This document shows, piece after piece, positions 1 to 22,751 of a DNA stretch of 23,861 bases. Under the pieces are notes generated by a model, which was not told the origin of the DNA, did not search any database, and saw only the letters and a list, made by a program, of their open reading frames with translations. A program made the position numbers and the translations under genes. The DNA is from a virus (lineage: Duplodnaviria; Heunggongvirae; Uroviricota; Caudoviricetes), in the IMG/VR virus record IMGVR_UViG_2579778956_000004, positions 1-23,861 of that record; one strand, given 5' to 3'. Each line of letters opens with the position of its first letter. Position 1 is the first letter of the stretch.

Positions 1-1251
1 GTGCTTACCGATACAAAATTAAAAAACCTCAAGCCGCAGGACAAACTGTACAAGGTCTCCGATCGTGACGGGCTGTATGTAGCTGTGCTTACGTCAGGCA
101 CGGTCTCGTTTCGCTATGACTACCGTATCAACGGTCGCCGCGAAACACTGGTAATCGGGCAGTATGGGCGTGACGGTATCAGCCTGGCAGAAGCGCGAGA
201 AGAACTGATTGCTGCAAAGAAGCTGCTTAAAGCAGGTCAGTCGCCGGCTACGGCTAAACGTGACGGTATCAAAAAGATTCGTGGTGCCGAGACGTTTGCG
301 GTACATACCGACAGTTATATGAAACACGTCATCTTGGCTGACAGTACCCGCGCAATGAAGCAGGCGGTGATCGACCGTGACATACTTCCGGTTCTTGGCA
401 ACAAAATGATGGCTGAAATTACCACATCGATGGTTCGTGATTTGTGTGACCGGATTGTCGAACGCGGTGGTCGGGCAACAGCAGTACAGGCCAGGGAGAT
501 CATCAGCAGCGTATACCGTCACGCCAATGACCGTGGTCATGGTTTGTTTAATCCTGCGGCTGATATTAAGCCTTCATCTATCGCCATATTTAAACCACGA
601 GAGCGAACGCTGACACCAGAAGAAATTGGTCTTTTCTTCCGCACGCTGGATGCCATTGGTGCTATGGGCACTATGAAAATGGCTTTAAAACTGCTGCTTA
701 TCACTATGGTTCGTAAGGGCGAATTCACCAATGCAACGTGGGATGAAATAGATTTTAAAAAATGGACATGGACAATTCCTTCAGACCGCATGAAGGGAAG
801 CCGGGCGCATGTTATTTACCTGCCTAAACAGGCACAGGATATATTGGTCGGGTTGCAGATGTGCGCTGGTGGAAGTGAATATCTGGTTCCTGGTCGTTAC
901 AATTTCCGGAAGCCATTATCTAATGCCGCGCTGAACTCTCTGATCGACAGAACGGTGAAAATAATAAATGAAGATGGTGAGCATATTCAGGATTTTACCG
1001 TACACGATATGCGCCGTACAGCCAGTACGTTGTTGCATGAGGCTGGTTATCCTTCAGACTGGATTGAAAAGGCTCTGGCACATGAGCAGAAAGGTGTGCG
1101 CGCCGTATATAACAAAGCGGAATACGCCAGACAGCGCGCCTACATGTTGCAGCAGTGGGCCGATATGATTGATTCCTGGATTAACGGCGAGCATACGGAT
1201 CTGATTCCGTTCTCCCCGTCGAAGTTTGAGAAGTGGATGGCGGGGGAATAA
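1..1251 (+). CDS. int: Tyrosine recombinase / phage integrase, P4-like family
   Basis: 416-aa ORF starting GTG at position 1. N-terminus MLTDTKLKNLKPQDKLYKVSDRDGLYVAVLTSGTVSFRYDYRINGRRETLVIGQYG matches the arm-binding domain typical of P4-type integrases. C-terminal part has the HDMRRTASTLLHEAGY and RAVYNKAEY region, consistent with the catalytic His-x-x-Arg and Tyr. The true start may lie just outside the window. Confidence 0.88.
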   Translation: MLTDTKLKNLKPQDKLYKVSDRDGLYVAVLTSGTVSFRYDYRINGRRETLVIGQYGRDGISLAEAREELIAAKKLLKAGQSPATAKRDGIKKIRGAETFAVHTDSYMKHVILADSTRAMKQAVIDRDILPVLGNKMMAEITTSMVRDLCDRIVERGGRATAVQAREIISSVYRHANDRGHGLFNPAADIKPSSIAIFKPRERTLTPEEIGLFFRTLDAIGAMGTMKMALKLLLITMVRKGEFTNATWDEIDFKKWTWTIPSDRMKGSRAHVIYLPKQAQDILVGLQMCAGGSEYLVPGRYNFRKPLSNAALNSLIDRTVKIINEDGEHIQDFTVHDMRRTASTLLHEAGYPSDWIEKALAHEQKGVRAVYNKAEYARQRAYMLQQWADMIDSWINGEHTDLIPFSPSKFEKWMAGE

Positions 1252-1254
1252 CGT

Positions 1255-1449
1255 TTAATTATTCTGCTGATTTTCTTCCATCTCGGCTTCTGCTGCCAGT
1301 GATTCAATTTTGTCTGCGAATATTGCTGACAGCGTTGCAAATTCAGCATCAGTGACAGCGGGAATTGGAACAAACCTGATCCCGCTGTGTGCAAGCATGT
1401 TTGCAGTTTCAAGGCATTTCCTTAAATCTGCTGGTGATGCCCGGTTCAT
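1255..1449 (-). CDS. Small hypothetical protein (64 aa), translationally coupled to the methyltransferase
   Basis: ATG at 1449-1447 overlaps the methyltransferase stop in an ATGA arrangement (plus strand 1446-1449 = TCAT). Product MNRASPADLRKCLETANMLAHSGIRFVPIPAV... has an acidic C-terminus. Convergent with int, 3 nt from its stop. No family recognised. Confidence 0.35.
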   Translation of the reverse strand: MNRASPADLRKCLETANMLAHSGIRFVPIPAVTDAEFATLSAIFADKIESLAAEAEMEENQQNN

Positions 1450-2096
1450 GCTGCACGCTCCCGCCCCTGGTTGTCTGTTGGTGACAGCGGAGCATTGCTG
1501 AATGCATTTGTTAATCTGGCAATATCCAACGCGTATCCAGGGTGTAGTTGCACTGCCGGGTCTTCGCACTGATTACCCCAAACATCGAAGCCATGAGACG
1601 ACTGGCGGGCGAACAGTTCAATGCGAGAAACATCGCCTAACAATTGCACAAGTTTTTCACGAACGACATCTGGTTTTCTTGAATGCTCAAGCCGCGGTGC
1701 GGTAAATGACTGAACGATCCCTGCATTAATGCGCGGAGGTAGTTTTCCCTTTACTGCAAACAGGCAATCTTCACTATTGGCGCGAGTCATGTGACCCATA
1801 CCCATAACCAGTTTATCTGGTTGTCGACTACCACATTTTATCCACGTGAATCCCTTCATGGTCATCAGACGGAATCCCCAGGCTTCAACAACTTTTAGTG
1901 CTTCGAGTGGTTGTGTTGGCACCCACCACATGGCCAACAGACAGTTTTCATCGGCCAAATCCCACACAGGAAGGCGGCAGATATCCATCACACTCATAAC
2001 CGGATATTTAAAACCGGCACCGCGATTACCATCTGCGGCTTTGTCCCGGTATACCCAGGGTGGATCTGCATAGATTAGTGTGTATTTCTTAGTCAT
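1446..2096 (-). CDS. MT-A70-family N6-adenine DNA methyltransferase (orphan, phage-type)
   Basis: 216-aa product MTKKYTLIYADPPWVYRDKAADGNRGAGFKYPVMSV... carries the DPPW catalytic motif near the N-terminus, as in MT-A70/Dam-like phage methyltransferases. No adjacent restriction endonuclease gene. Confidence 0.85.
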   Translation of the reverse strand: MTKKYTLIYADPPWVYRDKAADGNRGAGFKYPVMSVMDICRLPVWDLADENCLLAMWWVPTQPLEALKVVEAWGFRLMTMKGFTWIKCGSRQPDKLVMGMGHMTRANSEDCLFAVKGKLPPRINAGIVQSFTAPRLEHSRKPDVVREKLVQLLGDVSRIELFARQSSHGFDVWGNQCEDPAVQLHPGYALDIARLTNAFSNAPLSPTDNQGRERAA

Positions 2097-2388
2097 AAAC
2101 CACCCCGCAACATCCTATACCGCTATAGTCGCCACGGCGAAGGCCGTTACTTTTTGTGATACATTGGTCCCTGCGAACCGCGATCCTTGCACGCTCAACA
2201 TCACCAGAAGCAACATCCATACACTGAAGCCAAAGGTGAGCGGCAATGCGGAACTGCCCTTTTTTCTCTCTTTCAATCGCGCGTTTTTCGATCTCTATCG
2301 CCGCAGGAGTAACGGCGACAATCTTTGACGGACTGCGCATTGAAACCTTGTTCATGTGATATTTTTCAAGTCGGCTTAACTTTCTCAC
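2089..2388 (-). CDS. Hypothetical protein (99 aa)
   Basis: ORF ends 2 nt before the methyltransferase ATG. GTG start at 2388 is preceded by GAGAGGG (SD-like). No family recognised; start uncertain (internal ATG codons exist). Confidence 0.4.
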   Translation of the reverse strand: MRKLSRLEKYHMNKVSMRSPSKIVAVTPAAIEIEKRAIEREKKGQFRIAAHLWLQCMDVASGDVERARIAVRRDQCITKSNGLRRGDYSGIGCCGVVYD

Positions 2389-2497
2389 TTAATCCAACCC
2401 TCTCTGAAAATTAATGCCAGCAGATAAAGCCATGCTGAAACAGAGGCCAGGAATAAGTACCATCCTGACCATTTGCTCCAGTGCCTTAGCAGCACAC

Positions 2498-2746
2498 TCA
2501 TGCTGCGTTGCTCACAGGACGATATACACGTTGCTGAACAGGAGGCTTTTTACCCTGGAACTCTGCCGGGCTTGCTGCCTGACGTTCATCAAGCCAACGC
2601 TCAACTTCATCACGGTTCCATGCGCAGCGTTTATCGGTGATATACCAGCGTTTAGGAAATTCCCCTGCGCGCTCCATACGGTCGATAGTGCTCCATGACA
2701 GTGGCACCACCGCCAGGAGTTCCTTCTTACCTAATGCACCTTTCAT
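2498..2746 (-). CDS. AlpA-family HTH regulator / excisionase-like protein
   Basis: 82-aa product with LLAVVPLSWSTIDRMERAGEFPKRWYITDKRCAWNRDEVERWLDE, the pattern of AlpA/Xis-like prophage DNA-binding proteins. SD GAGAGG precedes the ATG at 2746. Confidence 0.75.
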   Translation of the reverse strand: MKGALGKKELLAVVPLSWSTIDRMERAGEFPKRWYITDKRCAWNRDEVERWLDERQAASPAEFQGKKPPVQQRVYRPVSNAA

Positions 2747-2795
2747 AAATACCTCTCTTGGTTGCAGTGCGGCGCGCGTGGCGCCGCGGTGGTGG

Positions 2796-3239
2796 TTACA
2801 TAGATGTTTCGTTTAATTCTTCCCGACGAACGCTGTAAACGTCGGTGGCTTTTGCCAGCAGTTCGTCATCATCTGAAAGTTTTTGTGCAATGTATTTGTA
2901 AGCCTTATCCAGTTCGGAGACAGTGCTGTAATTCATCGCTGCGCTGGTATCCGCTACATCACGAAGAAATGCTTCTTCGTCAGCTTTACCTTGTTTCGTC
3001 CGACGATCGAACTTCGGTGAAACAATGAAGCGTTTGTCGAATTCTCCAGGCTCCAGAAGCAGACAGTGCAATGCGGTTCCAATATCCAGTGCAGACTTTT
3101 TCTCTTCGTCTTCTGGTGCTGCCTGGACCCATTTAAGAAGCGCCGGATTCTTGGCAACCATGTCCAGTTGCGACTTACTCACGCCGTCACCGGCGTGGTA
3201 GTCTTCGTTGCTGATGTCGAAATAAATTCCCGGTTTCAT
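2796..3239 (-). CDS. RecE-like / PD-(D/E)XK-family nuclease N-terminal domain protein, probably truncated
   Basis: N-terminus MKPGIYFDISNEDYHAGDGVSKSQLDMVAKNPALLKW...GTALHCLLLEPGEF resembles the N-terminal region of exodeoxyribonuclease-VIII-like prophage nucleases. Only 147 aa, whereas this family is usually about twice as long as I recall it. Confidence 0.45.
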   Translation of the reverse strand: MKPGIYFDISNEDYHAGDGVSKSQLDMVAKNPALLKWVQAAPEDEEKKSALDIGTALHCLLLEPGEFDKRFIVSPKFDRRTKQGKADEEAFLRDVADTSAAMNYSTVSELDKAYKYIAQKLSDDDELLAKATDVYSVRREELNETSM

Positions 3240-3535
3240 GCCGCGTCCCTCTGTCCATCAAGCTGATCCGCCAGATCCCAGCGGGCGATAATTGCCATTG
3301 CCTCTCGCCGATAGGCATCCATCAGTTCTTCGAACTCAGGGCTGTCTTTAGCAGCCTCCAGTACTTCCTGACGAACGCCTTTGCCTGTTACAACGTCAAA
3401 AGTTGAGGACAGTTGATGAAGTCGGATGCTCTCAATCAGTTCAACTTGTCGGTCATATAGCTGTTCTGACAGGCGGTAGTCCTTGTCGAATGCCAGCATG
3501 ATTTTTTGAAGATTTTTCTGCTGATTAACGTTCAT
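3236..3535 (-). CDS. Hypothetical early-operon protein (99 aa)
   Basis: ATG at 3535 (MNVNQQKNLQ...) is preceded by GGGAGGG. Its stop overlaps the start of the nuclease-like gene (ATGA at 3236-3239). No family recognised. Confidence 0.45.
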   Translation of the reverse strand: MNVNQQKNLQKIMLAFDKDYRLSEQLYDRQVELIESIRLHQLSSTFDVVTGKGVRQEVLEAAKDSPEFEELMDAYRREAMAIIARWDLADQLDGQRDAA

Positions 3536-3537
3536 TA

Positions 3538-3690
3538 TCAGCCCTCCCATATCTCGTTATCGTTGGCTACATCGCGAGCTTCTTTGCTGACGAAAGCCCA
3601 CTTAATGCCTTCCTGTAAGGTGCGGAACTTCCAGCTCATGAATCCGCATGCAGTAACGCAGTACCAACCGTTGATGATTTTCCACTGCAT
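3538..3690 (-). CDS. Small hypothetical protein (50 aa), first gene of the leftward early operon
   Basis: Not in the ORF track (under 60 aa). ATG at 3690 preceded by GAGG; product MQWKIINGWYCVTACGFMSWKFRTLQEGIKWAFVSKEARDVANDNEIWEG; stop TGA lies 2 nt before the next ATG. Position is analogous to kil/cIII-type small genes of lambdoid pL operons. Confidence 0.3.
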   Translation of the reverse strand: MQWKIINGWYCVTACGFMSWKFRTLQEGIKWAFVSKEARDVANDNEIWEG

Positions 3691-3709
3691 AACTTGTTAC
3701 CTCGGTCTG

Positions 3710-3786
3710 TTACCGTTGAGGTAATAATTATGCGTATCTGGTTTGATGTCAATAGATATGAGTTAAAAAAATTACCCGTTAGGTAA
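3710..3786 (-). promoter_or_regulatory. Putative early-left promoter/operator region (OL-like) with two TTACC-N5-GGTAA palindromes
   Basis: Perfect inverted repeats TTACCGTTGAGGTAA (3710-3724) and TTACCCGTTAGGTAA (3772-3786) lie between the repressor terminator and the first leftward gene. Confidence 0.5.
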
Positions 3787-3796
3787 TCGAATAGGC

Positions 3797-3823
3797 AATA
3801 AAAAAGCCGCCATAAGGCGGCTT
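3797..3823 (-). terminator. Rho-independent terminator downstream of the repressor gene
   Basis: Plus strand AATAAAAAAGCCGCC-ATAA-GGCGGCTT. On the minus strand this is a GCCGCC/GGCGGC stem with a 4-nt loop followed by a U-tract, directly after the repressor stop at 3844. Confidence 0.65.
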
Positions 3824-3843
3824 ACTTACTGAAAAATATGATT

Positions 3844-4428
3844 TTATTGTTTGTTTTTTTCGTTCTGGTTGATGACAAATTCAATGTAACTTTCGATCTT
3901 TGCCTTCTCTGTTTCAGGTAACAATGCGTAGCGCGAGCGGTCATAGTTGATAGTTGCAGGATCATGCGGATGAATCAGTAGTTCATATCCGTGACGCCCG
4001 AATGCAGATGCAACATTCTCCAGGGTGGAAATGGAAACGCTGACCTCATTGTTTAACAGGCGGCTTATTGTCACCTGGGCGACGCCGGATGCGCGGTGAA
4101 GTTTTCCCTGAGTTGAAAGGTCGCGGCTTTCACTCATCCAGCGTTCCAGGTTGTGAGCCGCCAGTTGACCAATGTCGCTTGGTCCGACAGGCTGAAAACC
4201 TTCCTGAGAAAGCGAGCGATCGATATCAAGCCAGTTACGGGGTTTATTGGCGGCAGCTTCAATTTTTCGCGCAACCTGGTCGCCGATAACCTTCTTGCCA
4301 AGAGCCCAGCGGTTTACCAGATTTGCCTGAGTTCCAAGTTTTTCAGCCATCCGCGTCTGAACACCATTGAATTCACGGTCGATCAAGTCGTTGAGATTTT
4401 GCCTGCGGACGTCCTGGATACTTTTCAT
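3844..4428 (-). CDS. Prophage repressor, tandem helix-turn-helix, no S24 peptidase domain
   Basis: 194-aa product with two XRE-like HTH segments (TRMAEKLGTQANLVNRWALGKKVIGDQVARKIE and GKLHRASGVAQVTISRLLNNEVSVSISTLENVASAFG). No Ala-Gly/Ser-Lys autocleavage module is recognisable. Divergent from a Cro-like gene across an operator-rich spacer. Confidence 0.7.
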   Translation of the reverse strand: MKSIQDVRRQNLNDLIDREFNGVQTRMAEKLGTQANLVNRWALGKKVIGDQVARKIEAAANKPRNWLDIDRSLSQEGFQPVGPSDIGQLAAHNLERWMSESRDLSTQGKLHRASGVAQVTISRLLNNEVSVSISTLENVASAFGRHGYELLIHPHDPATINYDRSRYALLPETEKAKIESYIEFVINQNEKNKQ

Positions 4429-4483
4429 TTTCTGGAAAATCGCCTCATATCTGAATCAGAAGATGATTCAATTTAAAGCAATA

Positions 4484-4550
4484 TTACCCAACAGGTAAAT
4501 GCACCTCATGGGTAACTATCCTTGATTTTTGTTACCTTATAGGTGAATAT
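4484..4550. promoter_or_regulatory. Divergent immunity promoter/operator region (OR-like) with three operator-like sites
   Basis: TTACCCAACAGGTAA (4484-4498, perfect), GCACCTCATGGGTAA (4501-4515, half-site degenerate), TTACCTTATAGGTGA (4532-4546, one mismatch). Candidate rightward sigma-70 promoter TTGATT (4522-4527), 17-nt spacer, GAATAT (4545-4550) overlaps the third site. Confidence 0.5.
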
Positions 4551-4582
4551 TTATTATCTGAAATAAATATCAGGCAATAGCT

Positions 4583-4813
4583 ATGAGCGATAACGGACAT
4601 TTCGATTTCAAAAAGCACTGGCTTGCACTTACTCCGGATGAGCGTGAAGCCTTCGCACAGGAAGCCGGAACGACGAGTCACTATATCCAGACTCACTTAA
4701 CAGGTAAGCGCAAAATGCCAGGTAAGGTATTGATGGATGGGCTTTTTAAAGCCTGTAAATCAAGACAATGGCTGCGCTCAAAAGCAGAACTGGCATACTT
4801 CTTCTACTCATGA
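4583..4813 (+). CDS. Cro-like small DNA-binding regulator
   Basis: 76-aa ORF transcribed divergently from the repressor, immediately downstream of the operator cluster. Product MSDNGHFDFKKHWLALTPDEREAFAQEAGTTSHYIQTHLTGKRK... is consistent with Cro/YdaS-like HTH proteins. Confidence 0.55.
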   Translation: MSDNGHFDFKKHWLALTPDEREAFAQEAGTTSHYIQTHLTGKRKMPGKVLMDGLFKACKSRQWLRSKAELAYFFYS

Positions 4814-4835
4814 TATCCAGCCACAACCCTCTGTA

Positions 4836-4858
4836 GACCGCCATCCGGCGGTCTTTTC
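4836..4858 (+). terminator. Rho-independent terminator after the Cro-like gene (tR1-like position)
   Basis: GACCGCC-ATCC-GGCGGTC stem-loop followed by TTTTCAT, 23 nt downstream of the Cro-like stop. Confidence 0.6.
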
Positions 4859-4868
4859 ATATCTATTC

Positions 4869-4883
4869 GTACCTCAAAGGTAA
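4869..4883. promoter_or_regulatory. Operator-like palindrome upstream of the replication operon
   Basis: GTACCTCAAAGGTAA, one mismatch from TTACC-N5-GGTAA. Lies between the terminator and the ATG at 4963 and is preceded by the 11-mer ATCTATTCGTA (4861-4871). Confidence 0.4.
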
Positions 4884-4962
4884 TAAAAACCAAATATGGT
4901 TGATCTTTTTTTTGTGTCAGCACAAAATAACCGTAATCCCAATACTAATAACAGGGCTTACC

Positions 4963-5163
4963 ATGGAAATCATTACACGTATTGATGCCGCAAAGCGCGG
5001 ACTTAAACGCTACTACACCGGAAAAACATGTAAGCACGGACATGACAGTGAACGCTGGGTTTACAACGGACACTGTGTTGAGTGCACCATGGAATCAAAC
5101 CGTCGTATCAGGGCAGAGATTAAGCAGATCATGATTAATTCCTCCCCACAACATTCAAGCTGA
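4963..5163 (+). CDS. Small Cys/His-rich protein (66 aa), possible zinc-ribbon regulator
   Basis: Start chosen at the internal ATG at 4963 (MEIITRIDAAKRGLKRYYTGKTCKHGHDSERWVYNGHCVECT...), preceded by AGGG. The upstream extension in the ORF track would run through the promoter region. Cys-x-His-Gly-His ... His-Cys-x-x-Cys spacing suggests metal binding. Confidence 0.45.
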   Translation: MEIITRIDAAKRGLKRYYTGKTCKHGHDSERWVYNGHCVECTMESNRRIRAEIKQIMINSSPQHSS

Positions 5164-5178
5164 TAGCGGAGATTAATC

Positions 5179-5994
5179 ATGAGCAGACATGCAACAGATT
5201 GGGCCTGGGAGACAGATCCAGGTAGCTCGTCATTAAAGCTCATACTGCTCTCGATGGCTGACAGAGCCGATGAATATAACCTCTGCTACCCCAGCATAGA
5301 ACGCCTCGTTAAAGACACTTGCCTGAATAAAAAAACCGTGCAGGCCGGACTTATATCGCTCATGAAAATGGGGCTTATTTCAGATACCGGGGAGAGAAAG
5401 GGAGCGACAAAAAGAGTGCGGGTTTTCTCTCTTAATATAACCAAAAACGGGAACATTAAAGGCAACCGAGAGGGGGGCAATGAACCCGAAAACGGTAATG
5501 TTACCGAAAACGGGAATATACCCAAAAACGGGATGTTGAATGATCCCAAAAACGGGATGTTGAATGATCCCAAAAACGGGATCCAGAACCAGTCATATAA
5601 CCAGTCATTTAACCAAGAGAGGGAGAGCAGGACAAAAAACGGGGATTCTGTGCATCATGACCCCGGCGCAAACAACGCCGTGATGAATAACTTTGTTCCT
5701 CCTGGTGGGTCAGGGCAATTAGGCAAATTTGTCATGCATGAACAATGGCAGCCATCAGATGACTTTCTTCGGAAAAGCTCATTGCAGGGGATCTACCTGG
5801 ACAGTCTGCCAACGGCACAGGAACTTGCAGAGTTCAGAATTTACTGGATGGCTGAGGGTAAGGCATACCATCAGGCACAGTGGGAGCAGAAGCTGGCAAG
5901 GCGGCTGCAGATTAGCAGACAGAAGCAATCAACATTACCTGATAACAACGTTCCGCACTGGAACAGCCCTGAAGCATGGGAGGATTTCTTGTGA
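5179..5994 (+). CDS. Replication initiator, lambda-O-like (N-terminal HTH, repeat-encoded linker, C-terminal domain)
   Basis: SD GGAG before the ATG at 5179. N-terminal LKLILLSMADRADEYNLCYPSIERLVKDTCLNKKTVQAGLISLMKMGLI is HTH-like. The central region is encoded by the iteron repeats. The stop overlaps the next gene start (GTGA at 5991-5994). Confidence 0.7.
   Translation: MSRHATDWAWETDPGSSSLKLILLSMADRADEYNLCYPSIERLVKDTCLNKKTVQAGLISLMKMGLISDTGERKGATKRVRVFSLNITKNGNIKGNREGGNEPENGNVTENGNIPKNGMLNDPKNGMLNDPKNGIQNQSYNQSFNQERESRTKNGDSVHHDPGANNAVMNNFVPPGGSGQLGKFVMHEQWQPSDDFLRKSSLQGIYLDSLPTAQELAEFRIYWMAEGKAYHQAQWEQKLARRLQISRQKQSTLPDNNVPHWNSPEAWEDFL
5441..5645 (+). repeat. Iteron-like direct repeats inside the initiator gene (candidate origin of replication)
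   Basis: Seven copies of an AAAACGG(G/T)A core at about 5443, 5489, 5506, 5524, 5548, 5572 and 5634, including two perfect tandem 24-bp units CCCAAAAACGGGATGTTGAATGAT (5521-5544, 5545-5568). Followed by AACCAGTCAT x2 (5587-5608) in an AT-richer stretch. Confidence 0.6.
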
Positions 5995-8510: not shown

Positions 8511-8974
8511 TGATCGATGTTCGAATTATTCCCGCTACCGAAGAGCATCTTCAGATGATTTTGCCGGATGTTCGTCAGGCTGATATTGACGAACTGTATG
8601 CGGTATCACTGATGACTACCGAAGATGCGCTGCGTGTTGGTCTGCGTACTGCGACTATGGCCTGGTCAGGATTTGCGAACGGAGAACTGGTAACCATGTT
8701 TGGCGTATCTCCGGCGTCAATGATCGGTGGCAATGGTACGCCCTGGCTGGTCGGAACCAGCCGTATTGAAAAATATCAGAAGACATTTCTTCGCCACTGC
8801 CGCCCTGTATTGCAGCAGATGCTGGCAGTTTATCCGCGCCTGGAAAACTATGTCGACGAGCGAAACCATGTTGCCAAAGCATGGCTGCACTGGCTTGGAT
8901 TCAGGCTTGAAGAAGCCGCGCCTTATGGTGCACTTGGTCTTAATTTCCACAGATTTCACATGGAGAGCAAATAA
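8510..8974 (+). CDS. Small virion-associated protein, T7 gp13-like by position and size (hypothetical)
   Basis: 154-aa ORF whose ATG overlaps the upstream stop (TGATG). Position and size match the gp13 slot of a T7-like gp12-gp17 series. No motif recognised. Confidence 0.45.
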   Translation: MIDVRIIPATEEHLQMILPDVRQADIDELYAVSLMTTEDALRVGLRTATMAWSGFANGELVTMFGVSPASMIGGNGTPWLVGTSRIEKYQKTFLRHCRPVLQQMLAVYPRLENYVDERNHVAKAWLHWLGFRLEEAAPYGALGLNFHRFHMESK

Positions 8975-9549
8975 TGTGCGATCCGGTTATTGCTGGTGGC
9001 GCAATGCTCGCCATGAGTGGCATTCAGGCATACACCCAGTACCAACAGGGAAAGTATGCCTCGAAGGTTGCAGAAGCGAACGCAGATATAGCCACAGCTC
9101 AGGCAAATGATGCAATAAACAGAGGTAACGCTGAAGCTGAGCAACGGCGCAGAGAGACCCGACAGCGGCTTGGTACACAGGCAGCGACAATGGGGGCTAC
9201 CGGCGCTGATTTATCTACAGGTAACGCGCTGGATATATTTGGTGACACTGCTCAGTTTGGCGCTCTTGATTCGCTAACGACGGTGAATAACGCGCAACGC
9301 GAGGCTTACGGTTATCAGGTTCAGGCTGCCAACTATAAAGCAGAAGCCAGTTCAGCCCGTAAACAGGGGAATGTGGGAGCAGCAACAACTTTACTCACTG
9401 CGCCTCTGAAGGCATACGGTGCGTACCAGATGTTTGGTGGGACGTGGAGTCCGTTCTCTAAAGGAAGTACATCTAGTGGTGGGACGCCAATGTTATCTAA
9501 CTCAGGTTTTATGAATTCTGACTCCCGATTCAAAATAGGAGGTTACTGA
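8974..9549 (+). CDS. Internal virion protein, T7 gp14-like
   Basis: 191 aa, begins MCDPVIAGGAMLAMSGIQAYTQYQQGKYASKVAEANADIATAQ. Ala/Gln-rich with an N-terminal Met-Cys, similar in size and composition to T7 gp14 as recalled. Start overlaps upstream stop (TAATG); SD GGAGAG. Confidence 0.5.
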   Translation: MCDPVIAGGAMLAMSGIQAYTQYQQGKYASKVAEANADIATAQANDAINRGNAEAEQRRRETRQRLGTQAATMGATGADLSTGNALDIFGDTAQFGALDSLTTVNNAQREAYGYQVQAANYKAEASSARKQGNVGAATTLLTAPLKAYGAYQMFGGTWSPFSKGSTSSGGTPMLSNSGFMNSDSRFKIGGY

Positions 9550-13861: not shown

Positions 13862-13866
13862 ATTAA

Positions 13867-16341: not shown

Positions 16342-16350
16342 GGAAGTGTT

Positions 16351-16524
16351 GTGTTTTTAATTATTTTGAGTGTGATAATTTCTGTTGGGTTGTTATTTAT
16401 TGACCGCTACAAATATTTTCTTAACCCTCAGACTCAAGCTATTTGCTGGTTCATCTTTGTTGTGCAGGGAGTAGTTCTTGTTGCAAGCCTTATTGAGGGG
16501 AGGCCTCTTATTTTTACTGGGTAA
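16351..16524 (+). CDS. Small hydrophobic protein (57 aa), putative membrane protein
   Basis: Not in the ORF track. GTG 16351 with AGGAAG 4 nt upstream. Product VFLIILSVIISVGLLFIDRYKYFLNPQTQAICWFIFVVQGVVLVASLIEGRPLIFTG has two predicted hydrophobic helices. Confidence 0.3.
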   Translation: MFLIILSVIISVGLLFIDRYKYFLNPQTQAICWFIFVVQGVVLVASLIEGRPLIFTG

Positions 16525-16536
16525 ATAGGTGACTAC

Positions 16537-16833
16537 ATGCAAGCTATAGGATTCATTGTTTATATCGTCGTTGGTCTTTTTCAGTTGGCAGCAATTATGG
16601 CTGGGCTTGAATCATGGTGGGGATTGCACTGGATAATTGCAGCCCCCATTGCTTTCATCGTGAGCTATATTCCATTTGTTGGAGCGATTGTTGGTATGGT
16701 TGGCGCTGTGGATGTATGGCGGTGGGAGTGGTGGCAGGCTGGCCTTCTCTTCTTTGGTGGGATCATCTTTGCTATTGTCTGCGGTGGAATGTCATCATTT
16801 TTCGAATGGCTATCATTCAGAAAAGGGACGTGA
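16537..16833 (+). CDS. Small integral membrane protein (98 aa)
   Basis: Three hydrophobic segments (IGFIVYIVVGLFQLAAIMAGL; WIIAAPIAFIVSYIPFVGAIVGMVGAV; GLLFFGGIIFAIVCGG) with Trp-rich loops. Followed by a terminator. Confidence 0.5.
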   Translation: MQAIGFIVYIVVGLFQLAAIMAGLESWWGLHWIIAAPIAFIVSYIPFVGAIVGMVGAVDVWRWEWWQAGLLFFGGIIFAIVCGGMSSFFEWLSFRKGT

Positions 16834-16842
16834 CATGTCACA

Positions 16843-16866
16843 GGCCGCTTTCGCGGCCTTTTCTTT
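16843..16866 (+). terminator. Rho-independent terminator after the small membrane genes
   Basis: GGCCGC-TTTC-GCGGCC stem-loop followed by TTTTCTTT. It overlaps the stop codon of the convergent minus-strand gene. Confidence 0.5.
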
Positions 16867-17122
16867 ATGTGGTTTGTTTTCGTAATTGTTCGGCACAATA
16901 GTCTAGATGTGTTTGCAGATCCTGCATAGACATCTGTGAGCTGGTGACGTAGTTAATCAGTGCAGTCAGTTCGGCAAGTGGGCCATCGACATTAAATCCA
17001 TCTTTATCGAGATCCCGGAGTAATTTCATCAAGTGCGATCCATCCACCAGTGACCTGACGCCTCCCGGCGTGTGAATCCTTTCGGTAAATCCGTCTTCCA
17101 GTGGATAGTGATACTGCTGCAT
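16865..17122 (-). CDS. Small SOS-regulated protein (85 aa), candidate antirepressor
   Basis: Start assigned to ATG at 17122 (MQQYHYPLEDGFTERIHTPGGVRSLVDGSHLMKLLRDLDKDGF...) with GGAG 8 nt upstream. The longer 126-aa ORF in the track would read through the LexA box and operator. A near-consensus LexA box sits about 20 nt upstream of this ATG. Confidence 0.55.
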   Translation of the reverse strand: MQQYHYPLEDGFTERIHTPGGVRSLVDGSHLMKLLRDLDKDGFNVDGPLAELTALINYVTSSQMSMQDLQTHLDYCAEQLRKQTT

Positions 17123-17141
17123 CTTATCTTCTCCATGCAAT

Positions 17142-17161
17142 AACTGTATATTTATACAGTA
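17142..17161. promoter_or_regulatory. LexA (SOS) box
   Basis: AACTGTATATTTATACAGTA matches the E. coli LexA consensus TACTGTATATATATACAGTA at 18 of 20 positions, with the CTGT-N8-ACAG core perfect. On the minus strand a TATAAA -10-like hexamer lies inside the box. Confidence 0.75.
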
Positions 17162-17198
17162 GCAAATAATTTGTTTGCTATCCAGCACGTTTTGCAAA

Positions 17199-17213
17199 TT
17201 ACCTGAAAGGTAA
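17199..17213. promoter_or_regulatory. Operator-like palindrome TTACC-N5-GGTAA between the SOS gene and the tailspike gene
   Basis: TTACCTGAAAGGTAA, a perfect inverted repeat of the same type as at the immunity region, followed by the shared 11-mer ATCTATTCGTA (17215-17225). Confidence 0.45.
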
Positions 17214-17317
17214 TATCTATTCGTATTTACAGTCTTTCTATCCATATGTGGTTTTGCAGGTAATAGAATAACCAGATATGCGGCGCAACGGGTGCTGCGA
17301 CTATCTGGAGATTTAAC

Positions 17318-19480
17318 ATGACGGTCTCAACCGAAGTTGACCACAACGAATACACAGGTAACGGCGTTACGACATCGTTTCCGTATACTTTTCGAATTTT
17401 CAGAAAATCAGACCTGGTTGTTCAGGTGTCTGACCTGAACGGGAACATCACAGAGCTGATTCTTGATACTGATTATACAGTTACGGGTGCTGGTGGGTAT
17501 TCTGGTGGCAATGTAATACTGATGTCGGCACTTGCAAACGGATACCAAATTTCCATTTCGCGTGAGTTGCCGGTGACGCAGGAAACCGATCTCCGTAATC
17601 AGGGTAAGTTCTTCGCAGAAGTGCATGAGGATGCTTTTGATAAACTGACTATGCTGATTCAGCAGGTACGCAGCTGGTTAAGTCTGGCCCTCAGAAAGCC
17701 TTCGTTCGTGGCTAACTATTATGATGCTCTTAATAACTACATCAGAAACCTGCGAGATCCTTCACGCCCGCAGGATGCGGCAACTAAAAATTATGTTGAT
17801 AGCGTTGCAGATACAAACCTCAACAAAACACTAAGAACACCGGAAGCTATTCAATCTCTTCCTGATGCGATTTCCAGGGCAAACAAAATTGTTGCTTTTG
17901 ATAGCGCTGGTCAGCCATTTGCAACACTACCCCCATCAGGTAGCGCCACCGATGTGTTAATTGAGCTGGCAAAGCCTACTGGAGCGGGATTATCAGGGTT
18001 CGATAAGTCAGTTGATTACGCCGGTGGTACGGTTGGTAGTGAGCTAAAAAATGTTATATTCGTCAATCCTGATATGTATTCAACATTGCAGGAGGCGATT
18101 GATTATGCAGCATCTTTAACAGGGCTGGAACATTCTCCAAGTAGTGCAGCTGGGCATCCAGACTGGATACAACCAAATACTGTATGCAAAGTTGTCAGAT
18201 TAAATGGAAAGAAATACCCCATAAACACAACATTACATGTTTACGGTGATGTAAGCATAGATGCAGAATTTGGAGGGGTATATCTCACGGATGACTTCAT
18301 AGCAGATTCTTCTGGGTATGCTGTTAAATGCGATAAAGGAACAGGTAATCAATACGCTGGGCACATTAGCAATCTTTTAATTGACGCCCGCGCAAAGACT
18401 GTTAATGGATTTAAAATATCTGATGGTTATGCCAACAAGTTAGATGGCATTTACGTAGCCAACGTTGATGGTCATGGCATTCATATTGCTGGAGGCATGG
18501 GTGTGCACCTCATGAAATTCTATGCTATCAGCGTATTAAAACCTACGAATCCACTTAGTCAGGCACACATCATAGAAGGAAGCGATCACCATATTAGTAT
18601 GGGTGAAGGCAGATATTTCAGATTCGGAACGTGGGTTAGGAATGGTGGAAATAACAGGCTTAATAACGTACATAACTGGGGAATGTATGACGATACAGTG
18701 GCCGACCAAAACTCAAGAATGAAATGTTGCTTTGTTGTACAAAATTCTATAAACAACTCATTTAATCAATGTTTTGCAGATTCACCATCAAAATGGGATT
18801 ACACAAAAACAAATTTAGCTCCTGTTGATGGTTATATTAATGGTGGGATTGGTTTCTTCGTTGATAGTGGCGCTACCGGGAATATATTCTCTCAGTGTCA
18901 AACGTTCGTTAACATGAATGCTTATAATTCTGCCGGTCTCTCAAGTTATACTGCGGCGTTATATCCATTTCTTGTAGGTAGTGCGAATTGTGGATTTTCT
19001 TTATGTGAAAACTCAAACAGCCCAGCATGGGTTGGTAAATGTATAAATCATGTTTCTGGGGTGGCTCAAGAGTTCACAAATGCTGTGGGGACAAAAAATT
19101 TCGTTGGCATAGAAGACGACATGCATGCTAACAGGACTTTTTTCAGAAAAGGAGTTGGTGTTCCAATTATCTCGTATGTTATTAAAACAGAAACAGCAGG
19201 AAGCACTTATGTTGCTGATTTTTCATTGTCTTCTTATATTTCAATAACATGCAACTCTAACATTAGTATATCCGTTGCGACACTCAGTAACCCGCCAATA
19301 GGATATACTGAATGTACACTTTCAGTGTTTTCCGCATCATCAAAACTGATCACCTTTACAGGATCTGTTACGCTTGCGAAAAATACACCATCACTAAATG
19401 AATCCGGAACTCAGGTGTTCCGGATGTCAACTGCTGATGGCGGGGCTACTTGGTATGCGAGACTTGTAGCGAACTATTAA
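17318..19480 (+). CDS. Tailspike / tail fiber with T7-gp17-like N-terminal anchor domain and a distinct C-terminal receptor-binding region
   Basis: 720 aa; SD GGAG. N-terminus EYTGNGVTTSFPYTFRIFRKSDLVVQVSDLNGNITELILDTDYTV follows the conserved pattern of the T7 gp17 N-terminal domain shared by podovirus tailspikes. The C-terminal two-thirds are visibly more AT-rich and Asn/Gly/Ser-rich, consistent with a beta-helical receptor-binding domain. Confidence 0.8.
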   Translation: MTVSTEVDHNEYTGNGVTTSFPYTFRIFRKSDLVVQVSDLNGNITELILDTDYTVTGAGGYSGGNVILMSALANGYQISISRELPVTQETDLRNQGKFFAEVHEDAFDKLTMLIQQVRSWLSLALRKPSFVANYYDALNNYIRNLRDPSRPQDAATKNYVDSVADTNLNKTLRTPEAIQSLPDAISRANKIVAFDSAGQPFATLPPSGSATDVLIELAKPTGAGLSGFDKSVDYAGGTVGSELKNVIFVNPDMYSTLQEAIDYAASLTGLEHSPSSAAGHPDWIQPNTVCKVVRLNGKKYPINTTLHVYGDVSIDAEFGGVYLTDDFIADSSGYAVKCDKGTGNQYAGHISNLLIDARAKTVNGFKISDGYANKLDGIYVANVDGHGIHIAGGMGVHLMKFYAISVLKPTNPLSQAHIIEGSDHHISMGEGRYFRFGTWVRNGGNNRLNNVHNWGMYDDTVADQNSRMKCCFVVQNSINNSFNQCFADSPSKWDYTKTNLAPVDGYINGGIGFFVDSGATGNIFSQCQTFVNMNAYNSAGLSSYTAALYPFLVGSANCGFSLCENSNSPAWVGKCINHVSGVAQEFTNAVGTKNFVGIEDDMHANRTFFRKGVGVPIISYVIKTETAGSTYVADFSLSSYISITCNSNISISVATLSNPPIGYTECTLSVFSASSKLITFTGSVTLAKNTPSLNESGTQVFRMSTADGGATWYARLVANY

Positions 19481-20594
19481 CTTTTGAGTTGAATCTCAAC
19501 TCAATGTTTTTATAGGTTATTAGTGATATTATCACAGTAATCATAAATGTAATTATTGACATAATGAAGTAGGAAAGGATTCCTATTTCATATAGGTTAA
19601 ACCCAATTATTTTAAATACGTATAAAGATAGATATATAATAGCTTGGTGGCTAAGGTATATGCTATAGCTAATCATACCAATCAATACTATGTTGCTGGA
19701 TTGAAGAAACTTAGGCTTAATGTAGCAAATGCTGGAGAATAATATTGTTACTAAAATAAATCTATAAATCCCGTATCCGTCATCTTTTTGATAAATGCAG
19801 GTGAGCAATGTTAATATTGCTGTAATTGATATAATCAACTTCCAAGATTTTTTATCATGGTTTAGTGAATTATCGTAAACAACTTTACCAACCGCACCAC
19901 TAATGAAAAATAAAAACATATCTGTATTTAAATTAGACTTTTCTATAGTATAAATACCAATAATAAACAGTGTTATGGAAATATATTTTTCATTTTTATA
20001 AAAAAGAGATATAGCTACAATTGATATATAGAAAATCCATTCATACGGCAGAGTCCATGATACCACGCCAATACTGTGTATCCATGAGTCTTTGAAGAAA
20101 ATTCCACCGCCAAGAAACCCAAACGCTAATAGCTGAATAAGTGCTTTTCTGTAATCATCAAGACTAGCTCCATCAGACATAAATATTATAAACACTGCCA
20201 TGTTTATCAATGCAAAAAATAAAAACGCAGGTGCTAGTCGTTTTATTCTCTTCATCATAAAATCATCCGCGCTTTTTACATTTTTTATTCTTGATAAAAA
20301 AAGGAACCCGGTAATTGCGAAAAATATCTCCACCCCTAATGAGCCAAAATTATCATATATCGGCATTATTTTATATGGAATGTTTTGGTTTGTTATCCCT
20401 ATCGTAGGTAAGTAGTAAGCAAAATGATTGAAAAAAACCATAATACATGCCACACCCCTAAGACCTTCAAGCCACAAAATATTGTTTTGTGAATTGTTTA
20501 CTATCCCTGATTTCACAGGAATAAGAAATACAAAAAAAATAAAAATTAAGAATGCAATAAGCTGATATACGCTAAAATCATAGAAAAAACTCAT
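19446..20594 (-). CDS. Acyltransferase-3 family membrane protein, O-antigen acetyltransferase-like (lysogenic conversion candidate)
   Basis: 382-aa polytopic membrane protein with LWLEGLRGVACIMVFFNHFAY near the N-terminus, typical of Oac/OafA-type acyltransferases. Strongly AT-rich relative to flanks. SD AGGA precedes the ATG at 20594. The 3' end overlaps the tailspike 3' end by 35 nt. Confidence 0.8.
   Translation of the reverse strand: MSFFYDFSVYQLIAFLIFIFFVFLIPVKSGIVNNSQNNILWLEGLRGVACIMVFFNHFAYYLPTIGITNQNIPYKIMPIYDNFGSLGVEIFFAITGFLFLSRIKNVKSADDFMMKRIKRLAPAFLFFALINMAVFIIFMSDGASLDDYRKALIQLLAFGFLGGGIFFKDSWIHSIGVVSWTLPYEWIFYISIVAISLFYKNEKYISITLFIIGIYTIEKSNLNTDMFLFFISGAVGKVVYDNSLNHDKKSWKLIISITAILTLLTCIYQKDDGYGIYRFILVTILFSSICYIKPKFLQSSNIVLIGMISYSIYLSHQAIIYLSLYVFKIIGFNLYEIGILSYFIMSIITFMITVIISLITYKNIELRFNSKVNSSLQVSHTK
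19484..19511 (+). terminator. Putative rho-independent terminator after the tailspike gene
   Basis: TTGAGTTGA-ATC-TCAACTCAA hairpin (9-bp stem) followed by TGTTTTT, starting 4 nt after the tailspike stop. It lies inside the 3' end of the convergent acyltransferase ORF. Confidence 0.45.
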
Positions 20595-20772
20595 TACTCA
20601 ATCCTGTTTTATACGTAATTTATTTCATTTTAAATGCTAAACCATCCACAGTCACTCAGTTCTATGCCGCGTTTGTGTTTTTTGTGGCTAGACATCAGGT
20701 AATTTACTCCATATATGGTTTATTGTGTATGATGAACTCACCAACTAAGGGGGTTTTTATGCACAGTAAACG

Positions 20773-21186
20773 GTGGTCACTATGTCAGCCCAGCTAACCA
20801 GTGAGTCTTTAAATCAGTGGCTTAGTATGGGTTCTCTGGCTGCGGTAATCGCAGGTGTCCCTCCCGAGGTGGCTCTTGGTGCTTTATCCGGGGCGGTAAT
20901 ATTTATTACCTCTGCCGTTGAGTATCCAATACGCCGCCGGGTTCTCCTGTCGATGCTCAGCTTTCTCTGTGGGCTTCTCTTCTACAAACCAACTGCATCA
21001 ATTCTTATCGGCGTAGCCAGCCTGATCCCAACTATCACGCAGGATTCATTCGAGAAAGGGATCGTCTTCTCTGCTGGCGCGTTCGTGTCGGCAATCGTCG
21101 CAGTACGTATTGGTATCTGGCTCTATCACCGTTCGGACAATCCACGCGATTTAATCCCGGGGAGAAAAGACGATGACAACTCATGA
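20773..21186 (+). CDS. Putative holin
   Basis: 137-aa product with hydrophobic segments (LAAVIAGVPPEVALGALSGAVIFITSAV; ILIGVASLIPTI; IVFSAGAFVSAIVAVRIGIWLY) and a charged C-terminus, placed first in the lysis cassette. GTG 20773 and ATG 20782 are alternative starts. Confidence 0.5.
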   Translation: MVTMSAQLTSESLNQWLSMGSLAAVIAGVPPEVALGALSGAVIFITSAVEYPIRRRVLLSMLSFLCGLLFYKPTASILIGVASLIPTITQDSFEKGIVFSAGAFVSAIVAVRIGIWLYHRSDNPRDLIPGRKDDDNS

Positions 21187-21481
21187 GCTGCTTTTATTGA
21201 TAGCCAATGCGGTTATCTGTTCTGCGATAGCAATCCGCGTCGGAACCTTCCGGAGAAATGGATCGCAACACCGAAGGTTGGGAGGCTGGCTTGCTTATTT
21301 CCTGATTGTTGCTGCAGCTAGTATTCCTGTTCGTGTCGTCTATGCAATCTGGTTACGTACGCCAATGGCTGTGGATTTATCTGAGGTCATTATCAATGCT
21401 GTCATGCTTGCCGCGGTTATTAAAACACGCGGTAACGTTGTTCAGATTTTCAAAATATCGAGGTCTAAACATGGAGATTAA
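21173..21481 (+). CDS. Second small membrane protein of the lysis cassette (holin/antiholin-like)
   Basis: 102 aa with three hydrophobic segments and a basic C-terminus. Overlaps the previous gene by 14 nt and the endolysin start by 11 nt. Confidence 0.5.
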
Positions 21482-22100
21482 ACAATTCCAGCGAGCTGCT
21501 GGTATTAGCGAGGCGCTGGCCGCACGCTGGTTCTCGCATATAACTTCTGCGATGAAAGAGTTTGGTATCAGCAAACCAGAAGATCTGGCAATGTTTATTG
21601 CTCAGGTCGGGCATGAGTCTGGAGGCTTCACCCGGTTGCAGGAAAATTTCAACTACAGCGTCAGCGGACTGGCTAATTTCGTTCGGGCTGGGCGTCTCAC
21701 TCAGGGACAGGCCAACGCATTGGGGCGTCGTGCTGGTGAACCACCATTGCCACTTGAGCGCCAGAGAGCGATCGCCAATCTGGTGTACAGCAAACGCATG
21801 GGTAACAATGCCCCAGGCGATGGATGGAATTACCGTGGGCGCGGACTTATCCAGATTACCGGTTTGAATAACTATCGTGACTGCGGAAACGGCCTGAAAG
21901 TGGACCTGCTGGAGAGTCCTGAACTGCTGGCGCAGGACGAATACGCGGCTCGTAGCGCGGCGTGGTTTTTTGCCAGCAAAGGCTGCATGAAGTATACCGG
22001 CGATATTGCACGTGTAACTCTGATTATCAATGGTGGCCGGAACGGCATTGATGACCGGCGCGCGCGATACATCACTGCCAGTAAGGTGCTGGCGGTATGA
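21471..22100 (+). CDS. Endolysin, glycoside hydrolase family 19 (chitinase-like)
   Basis: Start taken at ATG 21471 ([11 protein letters not shown]...); the upstream extension in the ORF track overlaps the holin-like gene. Contains [10 protein letters not shown] and [16 protein letters not shown], characteristic of GH19-type phage endolysins. Confidence 0.85.
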
Positions 22101-22594
22101 TCTGGGCATTCGTAAAAGCATACTGGAAACAGTTGCTTATCGTGGCGGTGCTTGCTGTTCTGGTCATATCAGGAGTTGTTGCCTGGAATGTACACGGTAG
22201 CCGTCAGTACGACGCCGGGTATGCGCAGGCACAGGAAGATCAGAAGCAGGCTGATGATAAGGCCAGGTCACAACGTGATCAGGAGAAAACACAAATTGAA
22301 CGTGAAGCACAATCCCGTATCGATGTGGCGCGTGTTGATGCTGAGCATGCTAATGCCGCTGCTGACAGCCTGCGCGCCGAGCTTGACAAAACCAAGCGAC
22401 TCGCCGAACACTATACCGGATCTTTCCCCACTGGCACGCCAGCCAGCAAGGTCATCGGTGTGCTCGCCGACATGCTTGAAGAAAGCAATCGAGTTTACAA
22501 CGCAACAGCAGCTGAGGCTGAAAAGTATCGGATTGCAGGAGAATCCTGCGAACAGCAATACGATTCACTGAGGAAGCAAAAATCGTGGCACTGA
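22097..22594 (+). CDS. Inner-membrane spanin (Rz-like)
   Basis: ATG overlaps the endolysin stop (ATGA). N-terminal transmembrane helix [18 protein letters not shown] followed by a charged coiled-coil-like periplasmic domain. Confidence 0.7.
22323..22571 (+). CDS. Outer-membrane lipoprotein spanin (Rz1-like), embedded in the Rz-like gene in another frame
   Basis: [41 protein letters not shown]... has a signal peptide with an LLTAC lipobox and a Pro-rich mature part, nested wholly within 22097-22594. Start is uncertain (ATG at 22323, 22338, 22347 or 22353). Confidence 0.5.
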   Translation: MWRVLMLSMLMPLLTACAPSLTKPSDSPNTIPDLSPLARQPARSSVCSPTCLKKAIEFTTQQQLRLKSIGLQENPANSNTIH

Positions 22595-22721
22595 TTTCCG
22601 GTGACGGTATATAAAACGGTACGGTGAAAATCAGGTTGCAGAAAGTTGTTATCAGTCAATTGGTTATGGTATCCGTAAATAATTGAGTGGGAATGATTTT
22701 AATCCCTGCACTATGAATGAA

Positions 22722-22751
22722 CAAAACCCTCTGTTACTACAGAGGGTTTTT
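22722..22751. terminator. Bidirectional rho-independent terminator closing the lysis operon
   Basis: AAAA-CCCTCTG-TTACTA-CAGAGGG-TTTTTT: a 7-bp GC-rich stem flanked by an A-tract and a T-tract, between the convergent lysis operon and the minus-strand envelope genes. A second hairpin CTTCAAG-N9-CTTGAAG follows at 22754-22776. Confidence 0.7.

Follow-up and report, generated by a model that had tools for sequence, protein, structure and literature searches.

The DNA analysed here (the window) is the full 23,861-nucleotide stretch of IMG/VR virus record IMGVR_UViG_2579778956_000004 (positions 1 to 23,861). It is a piece of Escherichia coli chromosome with a defective prophage of the epsilon15/phiV10 type (genus Uetakevirus), inserted at the 3' end of guaA. 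An earlier sequence-only reading of this DNA had described a prophage-like element without packaging or head genes. We compared the window with the guaA-prophage locus of E. coli 2017.15.01CC (NZ_AP021890, 3345-3383 kilobases (kb); L001 below), where an intact, near-identical sibling prophage resides. Genes were assigned by the RefSeq annotation of this sibling, by Pfam on identical contigs, and by matches to PHROGs, Pfam and PDB.

The first gene of the element is int (1-1251, + strand), which encodes an intact P4-type tyrosine integrase of 416 amino acids (aa). The assignment follows the RefSeq annotation of the sibling and the Pfam domains Arm-DNA-bind_3, Phage_int_M and Phage_integrase on L010, contig AYKE01000014.1 of GCA_000511565.1, which matches window 1-18510 (18.5 kb) at 100%. 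The window begins at the int start codon, and the left attachment site (attL) therefore lies outside it. The right end is marked by the 17-base-pair (bp) core ATTGAGTGGGAATGATT at 22682-22698 on the + strand (attR), one copy of a direct repeat; the core equals phiV10 attP. In L001 one copy lies where guaA ends and the other follows the Rz gene, and upstream of int the core overlaps the guaA stop codon in both L001 and L010. The attL core lies at L010 3804, right after guaA and 207 bp upstream of the int start at L010 4011. ATTGAGTGGGAATGATT is also identical to the sequence at the int-proximal site of phiV10, and it is the published attP/attB core of phiV10, epsilon15 and vB_EcoP_ZX5, all of which integrate at the 3' end of guaA (PMC9782041). 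The sequence-only reading had proposed that the flanks be searched for a transfer RNA (tRNA) gene and a direct repeat; the repeat is there, whereas no tRNA gene was found within the window, the attachment site being in guaA instead. The strong terminator at 22722-22751, which had been taken as the end of the element, does not mark its end: the hairpin at 22723-22750 lies beyond attR, in host DNA between attR and yfgI, and is the displaced guaA/yfgI terminator. The host genes yfgI (22791-23330, - strand) and yfgH (23346-23861, - strand, its start codon cut by the window end) follow, as annotated in the sibling. In another assembly, GCA_050607465.1 (L022 15382-16876), a second P4-type integrase gene of 396 aa stands directly after attR and replaces yfgI, which suggests that a further element has integrated in tandem at this guaA site.

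The early region contains the first of two chimeric open reading frames (ORFs). Downstream of int, on the - strand, lie genes for a DUF1382 protein (1255-1449), an MT-A70 adenine methyltransferase (1446-2096), a PerC-family regulator (2089-2340) and an AlpA-like helix-turn-helix (HTH) protein, probably the excisionase (2498-2746), all assigned by the sibling and phiV10 annotations and Pfam. The next ORF on this strand (2796-3239, 147 aa) is a RecE'-'RecT chimera, as revealed by alignment to L001, and bears the scar of a deletion that we call D1. It is followed on the same strand by two small early genes with no function assigned (99 and 50 aa; 3236-3535 and 3538-3690; sibling annotation and Pfam run) and by an intact 194-aa prophage repressor with an HTH (3844-4428), which occupies the position of the phiV10 p40 repressor (sibling and phiV10 annotations, Pfam). 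The + strand then carries two small early genes in the Cro/cII positions (76 and 66 aa; 4583-4813 and 4963-5163; sibling annotation) and an intact 271-aa replication initiator-like protein with HTH_36 and DnaT domains (5179-5994; sibling annotation, Pfam). The second chimera, a P'-'nozzle ORF of 839 aa (5991-8510, + strand), bears the scar of the second deletion, D2, and was recognised by alignment to L001 and by Pfam, PHROG and PDB matches.

The late region runs on from this chimera on the + strand. Two internal virion proteins come first, one of 154 aa (8510-8974) and one of the T7 gp14 family of 191 aa (8974-9549), with PHROG 308 and 418 and Pfam PF24072 covering the pair. Homologues of epsilon15 gp15 (9549-12062, 837 aa), gp16 (12059-13861, 600 aa) and gp17 (13867-16341, 824 aa) follow, assigned by PHROGs and the annotation of phiV10 p18-p20; the first has a lytic transglycosylase domain, also matched in PDB, and for the other two, both large virion proteins, the PDB search returned no relatives. 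Two small genes (98 aa, 16537-16833, + strand; 85 aa, 16865-17122, - strand; sibling annotation, PHROGs) separate them from the 720-aa tailspike (17318-19480, + strand; PHROG tail and tailspike families). The N-terminal ~130-230 residues of the tailspike match a particle-binding module common to other podovirus tailspikes (PDB 28lx/8ck1), and its C-terminal part is unlike that of phiV10, the BLAST identity to which ends at window 17838. An acyltransferase-3 family O-antigen acetyltransferase (19446-20594, - strand) then takes the position of phiV10 Oac (Pfam PF01757, PHROG 3333, GC profile, phiV10 annotation). Over window 19000-20600, the GC content falls to 30-33% in the acyltransferase gene and to 39-44% in the C-terminal part of the tailspike. 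These low values identify the acyltransferase gene as a serotype-conversion moron of horizontal origin and the tailspike part as a receptor-binding module that has been swapped; neither is like its phiV10 allele. The lysis cassette, on the + strand and assigned by sibling annotation and Pfam, is complete and intact, with two holin-family proteins (20782-21186 and 21173-21481), a GH19 endolysin (21471-22100) and an Rz-like DUF2514 protein (22097-22594).

Head and packaging genes are absent from this series. As the sequence-only reading had stated, no terminase, portal, scaffold or major capsid gene occurs among the early, replication, tail/ejection, tailspike and lysis modules, and we confirmed this from int (1-1251) to attR. 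A tblastn search of the window, in all six frames, with the 18 proteins encoded in the segment that it lacks yielded no match with E under 0.3. Two ways in which such genes might have been overlooked had been raised. The first, that one of the large ORFs is a portal, terminase or capsid protein, is contradicted by PHROGs, Pfam and PDB, in which no large ORF matches such a family; the large ORFs are the nozzle remnant, the internal virion proteins (one of the T7 gp14 family, one with the transglycosylase domain), two virion proteins and the tailspike. The second, that head genes lie beyond the window inside the same attachment sites, fails because attL stands directly upstream of int in L010 and attR (22682-22698) lies inside the window, so that no head genes are hidden between this att pair.

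Comparison with complete E. coli genomes showed what is missing. The best match, 2017.15.01CC, accounted for 100% of the window with 100.0% identity, but as three separate pieces spread across 37.5 kb. The collinear BLAST blocks were window 1-2949 on L001 4001-6949, window 2948-6699 on L001 8264-12016, and window 6695-23861 on L001 24316-41482. The annotation of NZ_AP021890 places at this locus xseA, guaB, guaA, a complete 36.5-kb prophage, yfgI and yfgH. The prophage begins with int, the leftward early genes, recT, recE, the repressor, the DnaT-like initiator, P, nin-like genes, terS and terL. It continues with tRNA-Arg, portal, scaffold/peptidase, major capsid, Bbp16 cement, gp10 staple, connector-family protein and nozzle, and it ends with the internal virion proteins, three large virion proteins, tailspike, acyltransferase, holins, endolysin and Rz. 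The insertion site and flanks are shared with the window, and the 22.9 kb retained in the window are identical to the sibling save two single-nucleotide polymorphisms (SNPs), at window 15144 and 17233, and one 1-base indel. The latter, the only indel that is not a deletion scar, lies in an intergenic A-run between the 76-aa and 66-aa early genes (window 4880-4884; A5 in the window, A6 in the sibling). The sibling differs in carrying two further segments, of 1,316 bp and 12,304 bp, which give it complete recE, recT, P and nozzle genes and the packaging and head module.

We mapped both deletions to the base and checked breakpoints and fusions by translation, Pfam, PHROGs and PDB. D1 lacks L001 6950-8265 (1,316 bp of recE-recT), with TA identity at window junction 2949/2950 (here and below, a slash in a sequence or coordinate pair marks the joint or cut). 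It joins codon 97 of the RecE-like nuclease to RecT codon 263, and the in-frame chimera of 147 aa consists of residues 1-97 of the nuclease and the last 51 residues of RecT. D2 lacks L001 12017-24320 (12,304 bp), again with TA identity, at window junction 6699/6700. It joins P codon 237 to tail nozzle codon 220, and the resulting in-frame chimera of 839 aa consists of residues 1-236 of a lambda-P-like helicase loader and residues 220-823 of the nozzle. In this chimera, Pfam Phage_lambda_P matched residues 40-200 and PHROG tail-protein families residues 239-839, while PDB 8v9t (lambda P helicase loader) matched residues 1-204 and 8ck1_A (tail nozzle) residues 251-838. At each of the two junctions, the TA dinucleotide is the sole sequence shared by the parental sites. 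D2 removed the nin-like (late-early) genes, terS, terL, tRNA-Arg, portal, scaffold/protease, major capsid, cement, staple and adaptor. The tRNA-Arg gene lies between terL and the portal gene of the intact prophage (L001 17450-17526) and is gone from the window lineage together with the head module. The suggestion of the sequence-only reading that the element is a defective prophage remnant with a large deletion was thus correct, D2 being that deletion and D1 a second one.

The junctions were then searched in other assemblies. Among recorded contigs, 22 from other assemblies encode the 147-aa RecE'-'RecT protein. For the 839-aa P'-'nozzle protein there are four, belonging to two NCBI assemblies (one with two contigs) and one Logan run; the record is of the called gene (start 5991), and the longest ORF version of the chimera (start 5976, 844 aa) gave no record. 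Mapping of contigs on L001 showed that the D1/D2 junctions recur in GCA_000511565.1, GCA_958307585.1, GCA_001616135.1, two ENA metagenome assemblies and one Logan run. These results bear on the suspicion that the gap arose artificially in assembly or sampling, or that head genes adjoin the window between the same att sites, a suspicion nourished by the window starting exactly at the int start codon with its left flank unseen. We give it practically no credence: contig L010 shows guaA and attL directly upstream of int at 100% over 18.5 kb, assemblies of independent origin repeat both junctions, the window includes attR, and a false assembly join is excluded because 2 bp of identity cannot cause one. 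The deletion is genuine and not an assembly artefact. On the other side stand some negative searches. The D1 and D2 junctions were absent from 5,426 complete RefSeq E. coli genomes, and the D2 junction had no exact match among GTDB species representatives or JGI metagenome contigs. Because neither junction is found in the complete RefSeq E. coli genomes, the GTDB representatives or the JGI metagenomes, the deleted form is confined to one E. coli lineage known only from draft assemblies.

Taken together, the element is almost certainly a ~36.5-kb phiV10-like prophage that two very recent illegitimate deletions have reduced to a defective remnant at guaA, and no evidence was found against an origin by deletion. 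The reverse course, in which an insertion turned the 22.9-kb form into the 36.5-kb one, is implausible, as conserved genes are interrupted at the junctions. The ancestor would have been an intact ~36.5-kb Uetakevirus prophage at the 3' end of guaA, and D1 and D2 would be illegitimate deletions that each rested on TA identity only and both left in-frame chimeric ORFs. The loss is judged very recent because the remnant is identical to the intact sibling save the two SNPs and the single 1-base indel.

The absence of head and packaging genes beside int, repressor and replication genes would also be expected of a phage satellite (PICI- or P4-like), which integrates, confers immunity and replicates with genes of its own but takes its capsids from a helper, be it co-resident or superinfecting. 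Potential helpers are common, ~10% of complete E. coli genomes having a phiV10-like P gene. However, the element equals a complete phage genome apart from two gene-cutting scars, and it has retained tail, ejection and lysis genes amounting to 13 kb, unlike satellites. Its terS, the expected location of the packaging (pac) site, is deleted; Pfam and PHROGs reveal no capsid-size-redirecting or helper-interference genes; and the same region is eroded further, at random, in sister strains. The compactness, own packaging signal or terS and helper-manipulating genes that define PICI, P4-like elements and cf-PICI are thus not what we found, and a satellite is very improbable.

A domesticated tail-only (tailocin-like) element, whose tail particles would be released by its own lysis cassette, could be read from the intact and contiguous tail, ejection, tailspike and lysis genes. 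The nozzle, however, is short of 219 N-terminal residues and joined to a replication protein, and the adaptor (connector-family) and portal genes are deleted; podovirus tails assemble on the portal vertex, and we know of no podovirus tailocin. In sister genomes the tail genes have been lost piecemeal, which argues that they are not under purifying selection. Complete, self-sufficient and conserved tail genes without head genes, the mark of a tailocin, are not present here, and we regard this explanation as highly unlikely too. The proposal of the sequence-only reading that the element is tail-only or a helper-dependent satellite is therefore not supported, given the near-identical intact 36.5-kb prophage, the gene-cutting junctions and the nozzle, adaptor and terS losses.

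As a deletion remnant, the element is unable to build capsids or package DNA. With terS it has lost the expected place of the pac site; the nozzle is truncated by 219 residues, the adaptor gene is gone, and recET is destroyed. The helicase loader P has lost its last 25 residues and gained a 603-residue foreign tail. We infer a non-productive cryptic prophage from which no phage could be induced. The genes for the repressor, integrase, AlpA-like protein, methyltransferase and O-antigen acyltransferase, and the whole lysis cassette, do not differ from the intact sibling's. Because these genes are identical, the remnant may still supply repressor immunity (homoimmunity) and O-antigen acetylation (serotype modification), probably retaining both, and may perhaps still be capable of excision dependent on Int and Xis; the retained cassette may also lyse the cell if late transcription can still be triggered.

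Related prophages showed further stages of the same decay. We compared sister contigs (numbered L003-L033) with the intact sibling and give their deletions in L001 coordinates. On top of D1 and D2, nested deletions were found at 26159-32193, which yields a 598-aa gp13'-'gp17 fusion, at 25835-34634, at 25511-26957 and at 28958-32156, which yields a gp15'-'gp17 fusion. Another deletion in contigs sharing D1/D2 (10608-28345) overrides D2. The contigs L004-L019 thus present, against L001, a graded series of nested deletions in the tail/ejection genes across sister assemblies of the window lineage and of related lineages, all at ~100% sequence identity, with gp15'-'gp17 long in-frame fusions of 1197 and 1215 aa. 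Other lineages of the prophage, which are without D1, show deletions of a different set. XPFI_3_2/YJR has three deletions of its own and an IS3 insertion in the endolysin gene; GCA_030717305 and GCA_036604425 have deletions 12017-28484 and 28568-31577; and GCA_023099445 and GCA_052417555 have deletion 15444-25956, to which the second adds 29287-32431. The IS3 lies at L003 22776-24033 (complete genomes NZ_CM146018, XPFI_3_2, and NZ_CM146016, YJR), and in both strains further IS3-family fragments adjoin yfgH. Between the two deletions of L015/L016 an 85-bp island of gp15 remains (L001 28483-28567; L015/L016 6555-6639), the left endpoint being the same base as that of window D2, which points either to two independent events or to a single complex one involving template switching.

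Most copies of the prophage are intact. Because the intact parent and graded deletion derivatives co-exist at essentially 100% identity, gene loss by deletion is much faster than point substitution in the phiV10-like prophage lineage studied. The order of events can be read from the series: the recET and P-to-nozzle deletions came first, and the nested tail-gene losses followed. The window element is of value as an example of prophage decay caught in the act; the finding itself is of little weight.

We then examined the breakpoints of the two window junctions and 15 more from L003-L033. TA was present in 13 of the 16 junctions with at least 2 bp of identity, compared with 6% for random deletions in this sequence (p about 1e-13). 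The hexamer GCTACC has 13 copies on the prophage + strand, four of which are left breakpoints of five independent deletions including D2 (p = 3e-7); the copy at P codons 236/237 (GCT/ACC) is the left breakpoint of window D2. A protein search with the P moiety showed a second hot spot, GAT/ACC after P residue D161 (codons 161/162; L001 11788-11793), with at least 8 different fusion partners, including terS, DUF551 genes, gp17 and the tailspike. This site is intact in the window, at 6471-6476. Beyond the joint, each partner opens with I, T, K, N or M, which indicates that the partner codon starts with A. Three of these fusions, on four contigs, were checked in the DNA and had TA or GATA at the junction; the contigs hold prophages ~1.5% diverged from L001 (98.5-98.9% identical in the region). 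A second, independent recE-recT deletion likewise has TA at its junction. Endpoints were also reused, L001 12016 twice and L001 32156/7 twice, and a further hot spot lies at gp17 codon ~224.

The sequence around TA was not random either. When 48 strand ends were read 5' to 3' up to the T of TA, C stood at position -5 in 27 of 48 (background 0.25, p 4e-6), C or G (S) at -4 in 36 of 48 (background 0.52, p 1e-3) and G at -3 in 29 of 48 (background 0.31, p 3e-5). The enrichment is present on both the retained and the discarded sides and is larger than codon phase can explain. The breakpoint site is thus roughly palindromic, C-S-G-N-TA-N-C-S-G. Ten of the 13 gene-to-gene deletions keep the reading frame, when 0.40 would be expected to (p = 0.008). 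The excess is partly explained by the position of TA, 54% of these dinucleotides lying at codon positions 3-1 in these genes, and as a real excess the preservation of frame is suggestive only.

These data raise the possibility, which we advance tentatively and hold to be rather doubtful, that the deletions in the window and at least 15 independent others in the prophage family stem from sequence-specific breaking and rejoining at TA, in the context C-S-G-N-TA-N-C-S-G and at reused hot spots, and not from random microhomology. Type IA topoisomerases follow a rule of C at -4, which fits here if the cut is placed 5' of TA. We infer that a type IA topoisomerase is the closest lead. E. coli topoisomerase I (Topo I) has been reported to cleave at TA with C at -4, with the motif TCNTT/A in vivo (PMC9352719). 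The fit is partial: TA and the conserved C match, but the G/C-rich flank is unlike this AT-rich motif. TGTGATACCCGCCG and GCCGCTACCCTGG are sequences linked to the breakpoint signature and would be candidate cleavage substrates for Topo I or topoisomerase III (Topo III).

Other candidates were tried and set aside. The target consensus sequences of Tn5 (GNTYWRANC) and IS10 (GCTNAGC) do not fit the TA junctions, and IS630/mariner elements, which target TA, have no element ends at the breakpoints. Integron secondary sites (G/WT crossover) would predict a different product. For serine recombinases that use a 2-bp overlap, the sites are too variable in sequence (degenerate), and no enzyme emerged as a candidate. 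RusA, which cuts 5' of CC, fits the left sites only; IS621 bridge-RNA recombination has the core CT, not TA; and the gyrase consensus has its G one position off, with a stagger of 4 bp. For the Rpn nuclease no fit was made, the paper being without site information.

Topoisomerase-mediated strand transfer could be a main decay route in this prophage family. The breakpoint signature across relatives is the only part of this work that might repay further effort; if confirmed, it would suggest that illegitimate deletion in E. coli can follow a specific enzymatic route, testable in intact-prophage lysogens.

Finally, we compared the element with known phages and prophages. In a whole-window megablast against phages, phiV10 was the top match (96.7% identity across 79% of the window), ahead of further phages of the phiV10/epsilon15 type; phage nucleotide comparison put Tyrion and epsilon15 at ~78-81% identity. 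Gene order is collinear with that of Uetakevirus members once circular permutation at att is allowed for. The element has the integration hallmarks of the genus, a P4-type tyrosine integrase and the 17-bp core at the 3' end of guaA, and its podovirus tail module (nozzle from residue 220 on, internal virion proteins, gp16/gp17 homologues and tailspike; PHROGs, Pfam, PDB). The complete packaging and head module of the genus (terS, terL, portal, scaffold, gp7-type capsid, gp10 staple) is present in the intact sibling and absent here, and the element is therefore a defective derivative and not a functional Uetakevirus member. The combination of lambdoid early and T7-like late genes, which had been thought an unusual mosaic, is nothing of the kind: phiV10, epsilon15, Tyrion, ZX5 and other Uetakevirus share the layout. 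By its annotation, phiV10 itself combines P-like and DnaT-like replication genes, a CI-like repressor and recET with late genes for a nozzle, a gp14-family protein and gp15-17-type proteins.

With phiV10 (DQ126339) the window has in common the integrase, the attP core, the repressor/recET/DnaT-like/P early region, the nozzle, the internal virion proteins, the gp15-17-like late genes, an Oac-type acyltransferase and the lysis cassette, in the same gene order. It differs in lacking p45-p55, p01-p14, most of recET, the 3' end of P and the 5' end of p15, as well as the antirepressor region p21-p23, and in the tailspike C-terminus and the acyltransferase allele. Epsilon15 and vB_EcoP_ZX5 share its genus, architecture and 17-bp attachment core at the 3' end of guaA; they differ in being complete inducible phages, and epsilon15 matches just a third of the window, at only ~78% identity. 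The element is att-bounded, derives from a known complete phage and is without genes essential for particle formation, as defective prophages are. It is a textbook defective prophage of a described genus, and its sequence is already in public assemblies. The cryptic prophages DLP12, Rac and Qin of E. coli K-12 are att-bounded remnants with essential morphogenesis and replication genes deleted and some lysis or immunity genes kept. The window element resembles them in being such a remnant, with essential genes lost by deletion and some genes kept, whereas they are old, heavily decayed lambdoid siphoviruses and it represents a very recent loss in a podovirus genus.

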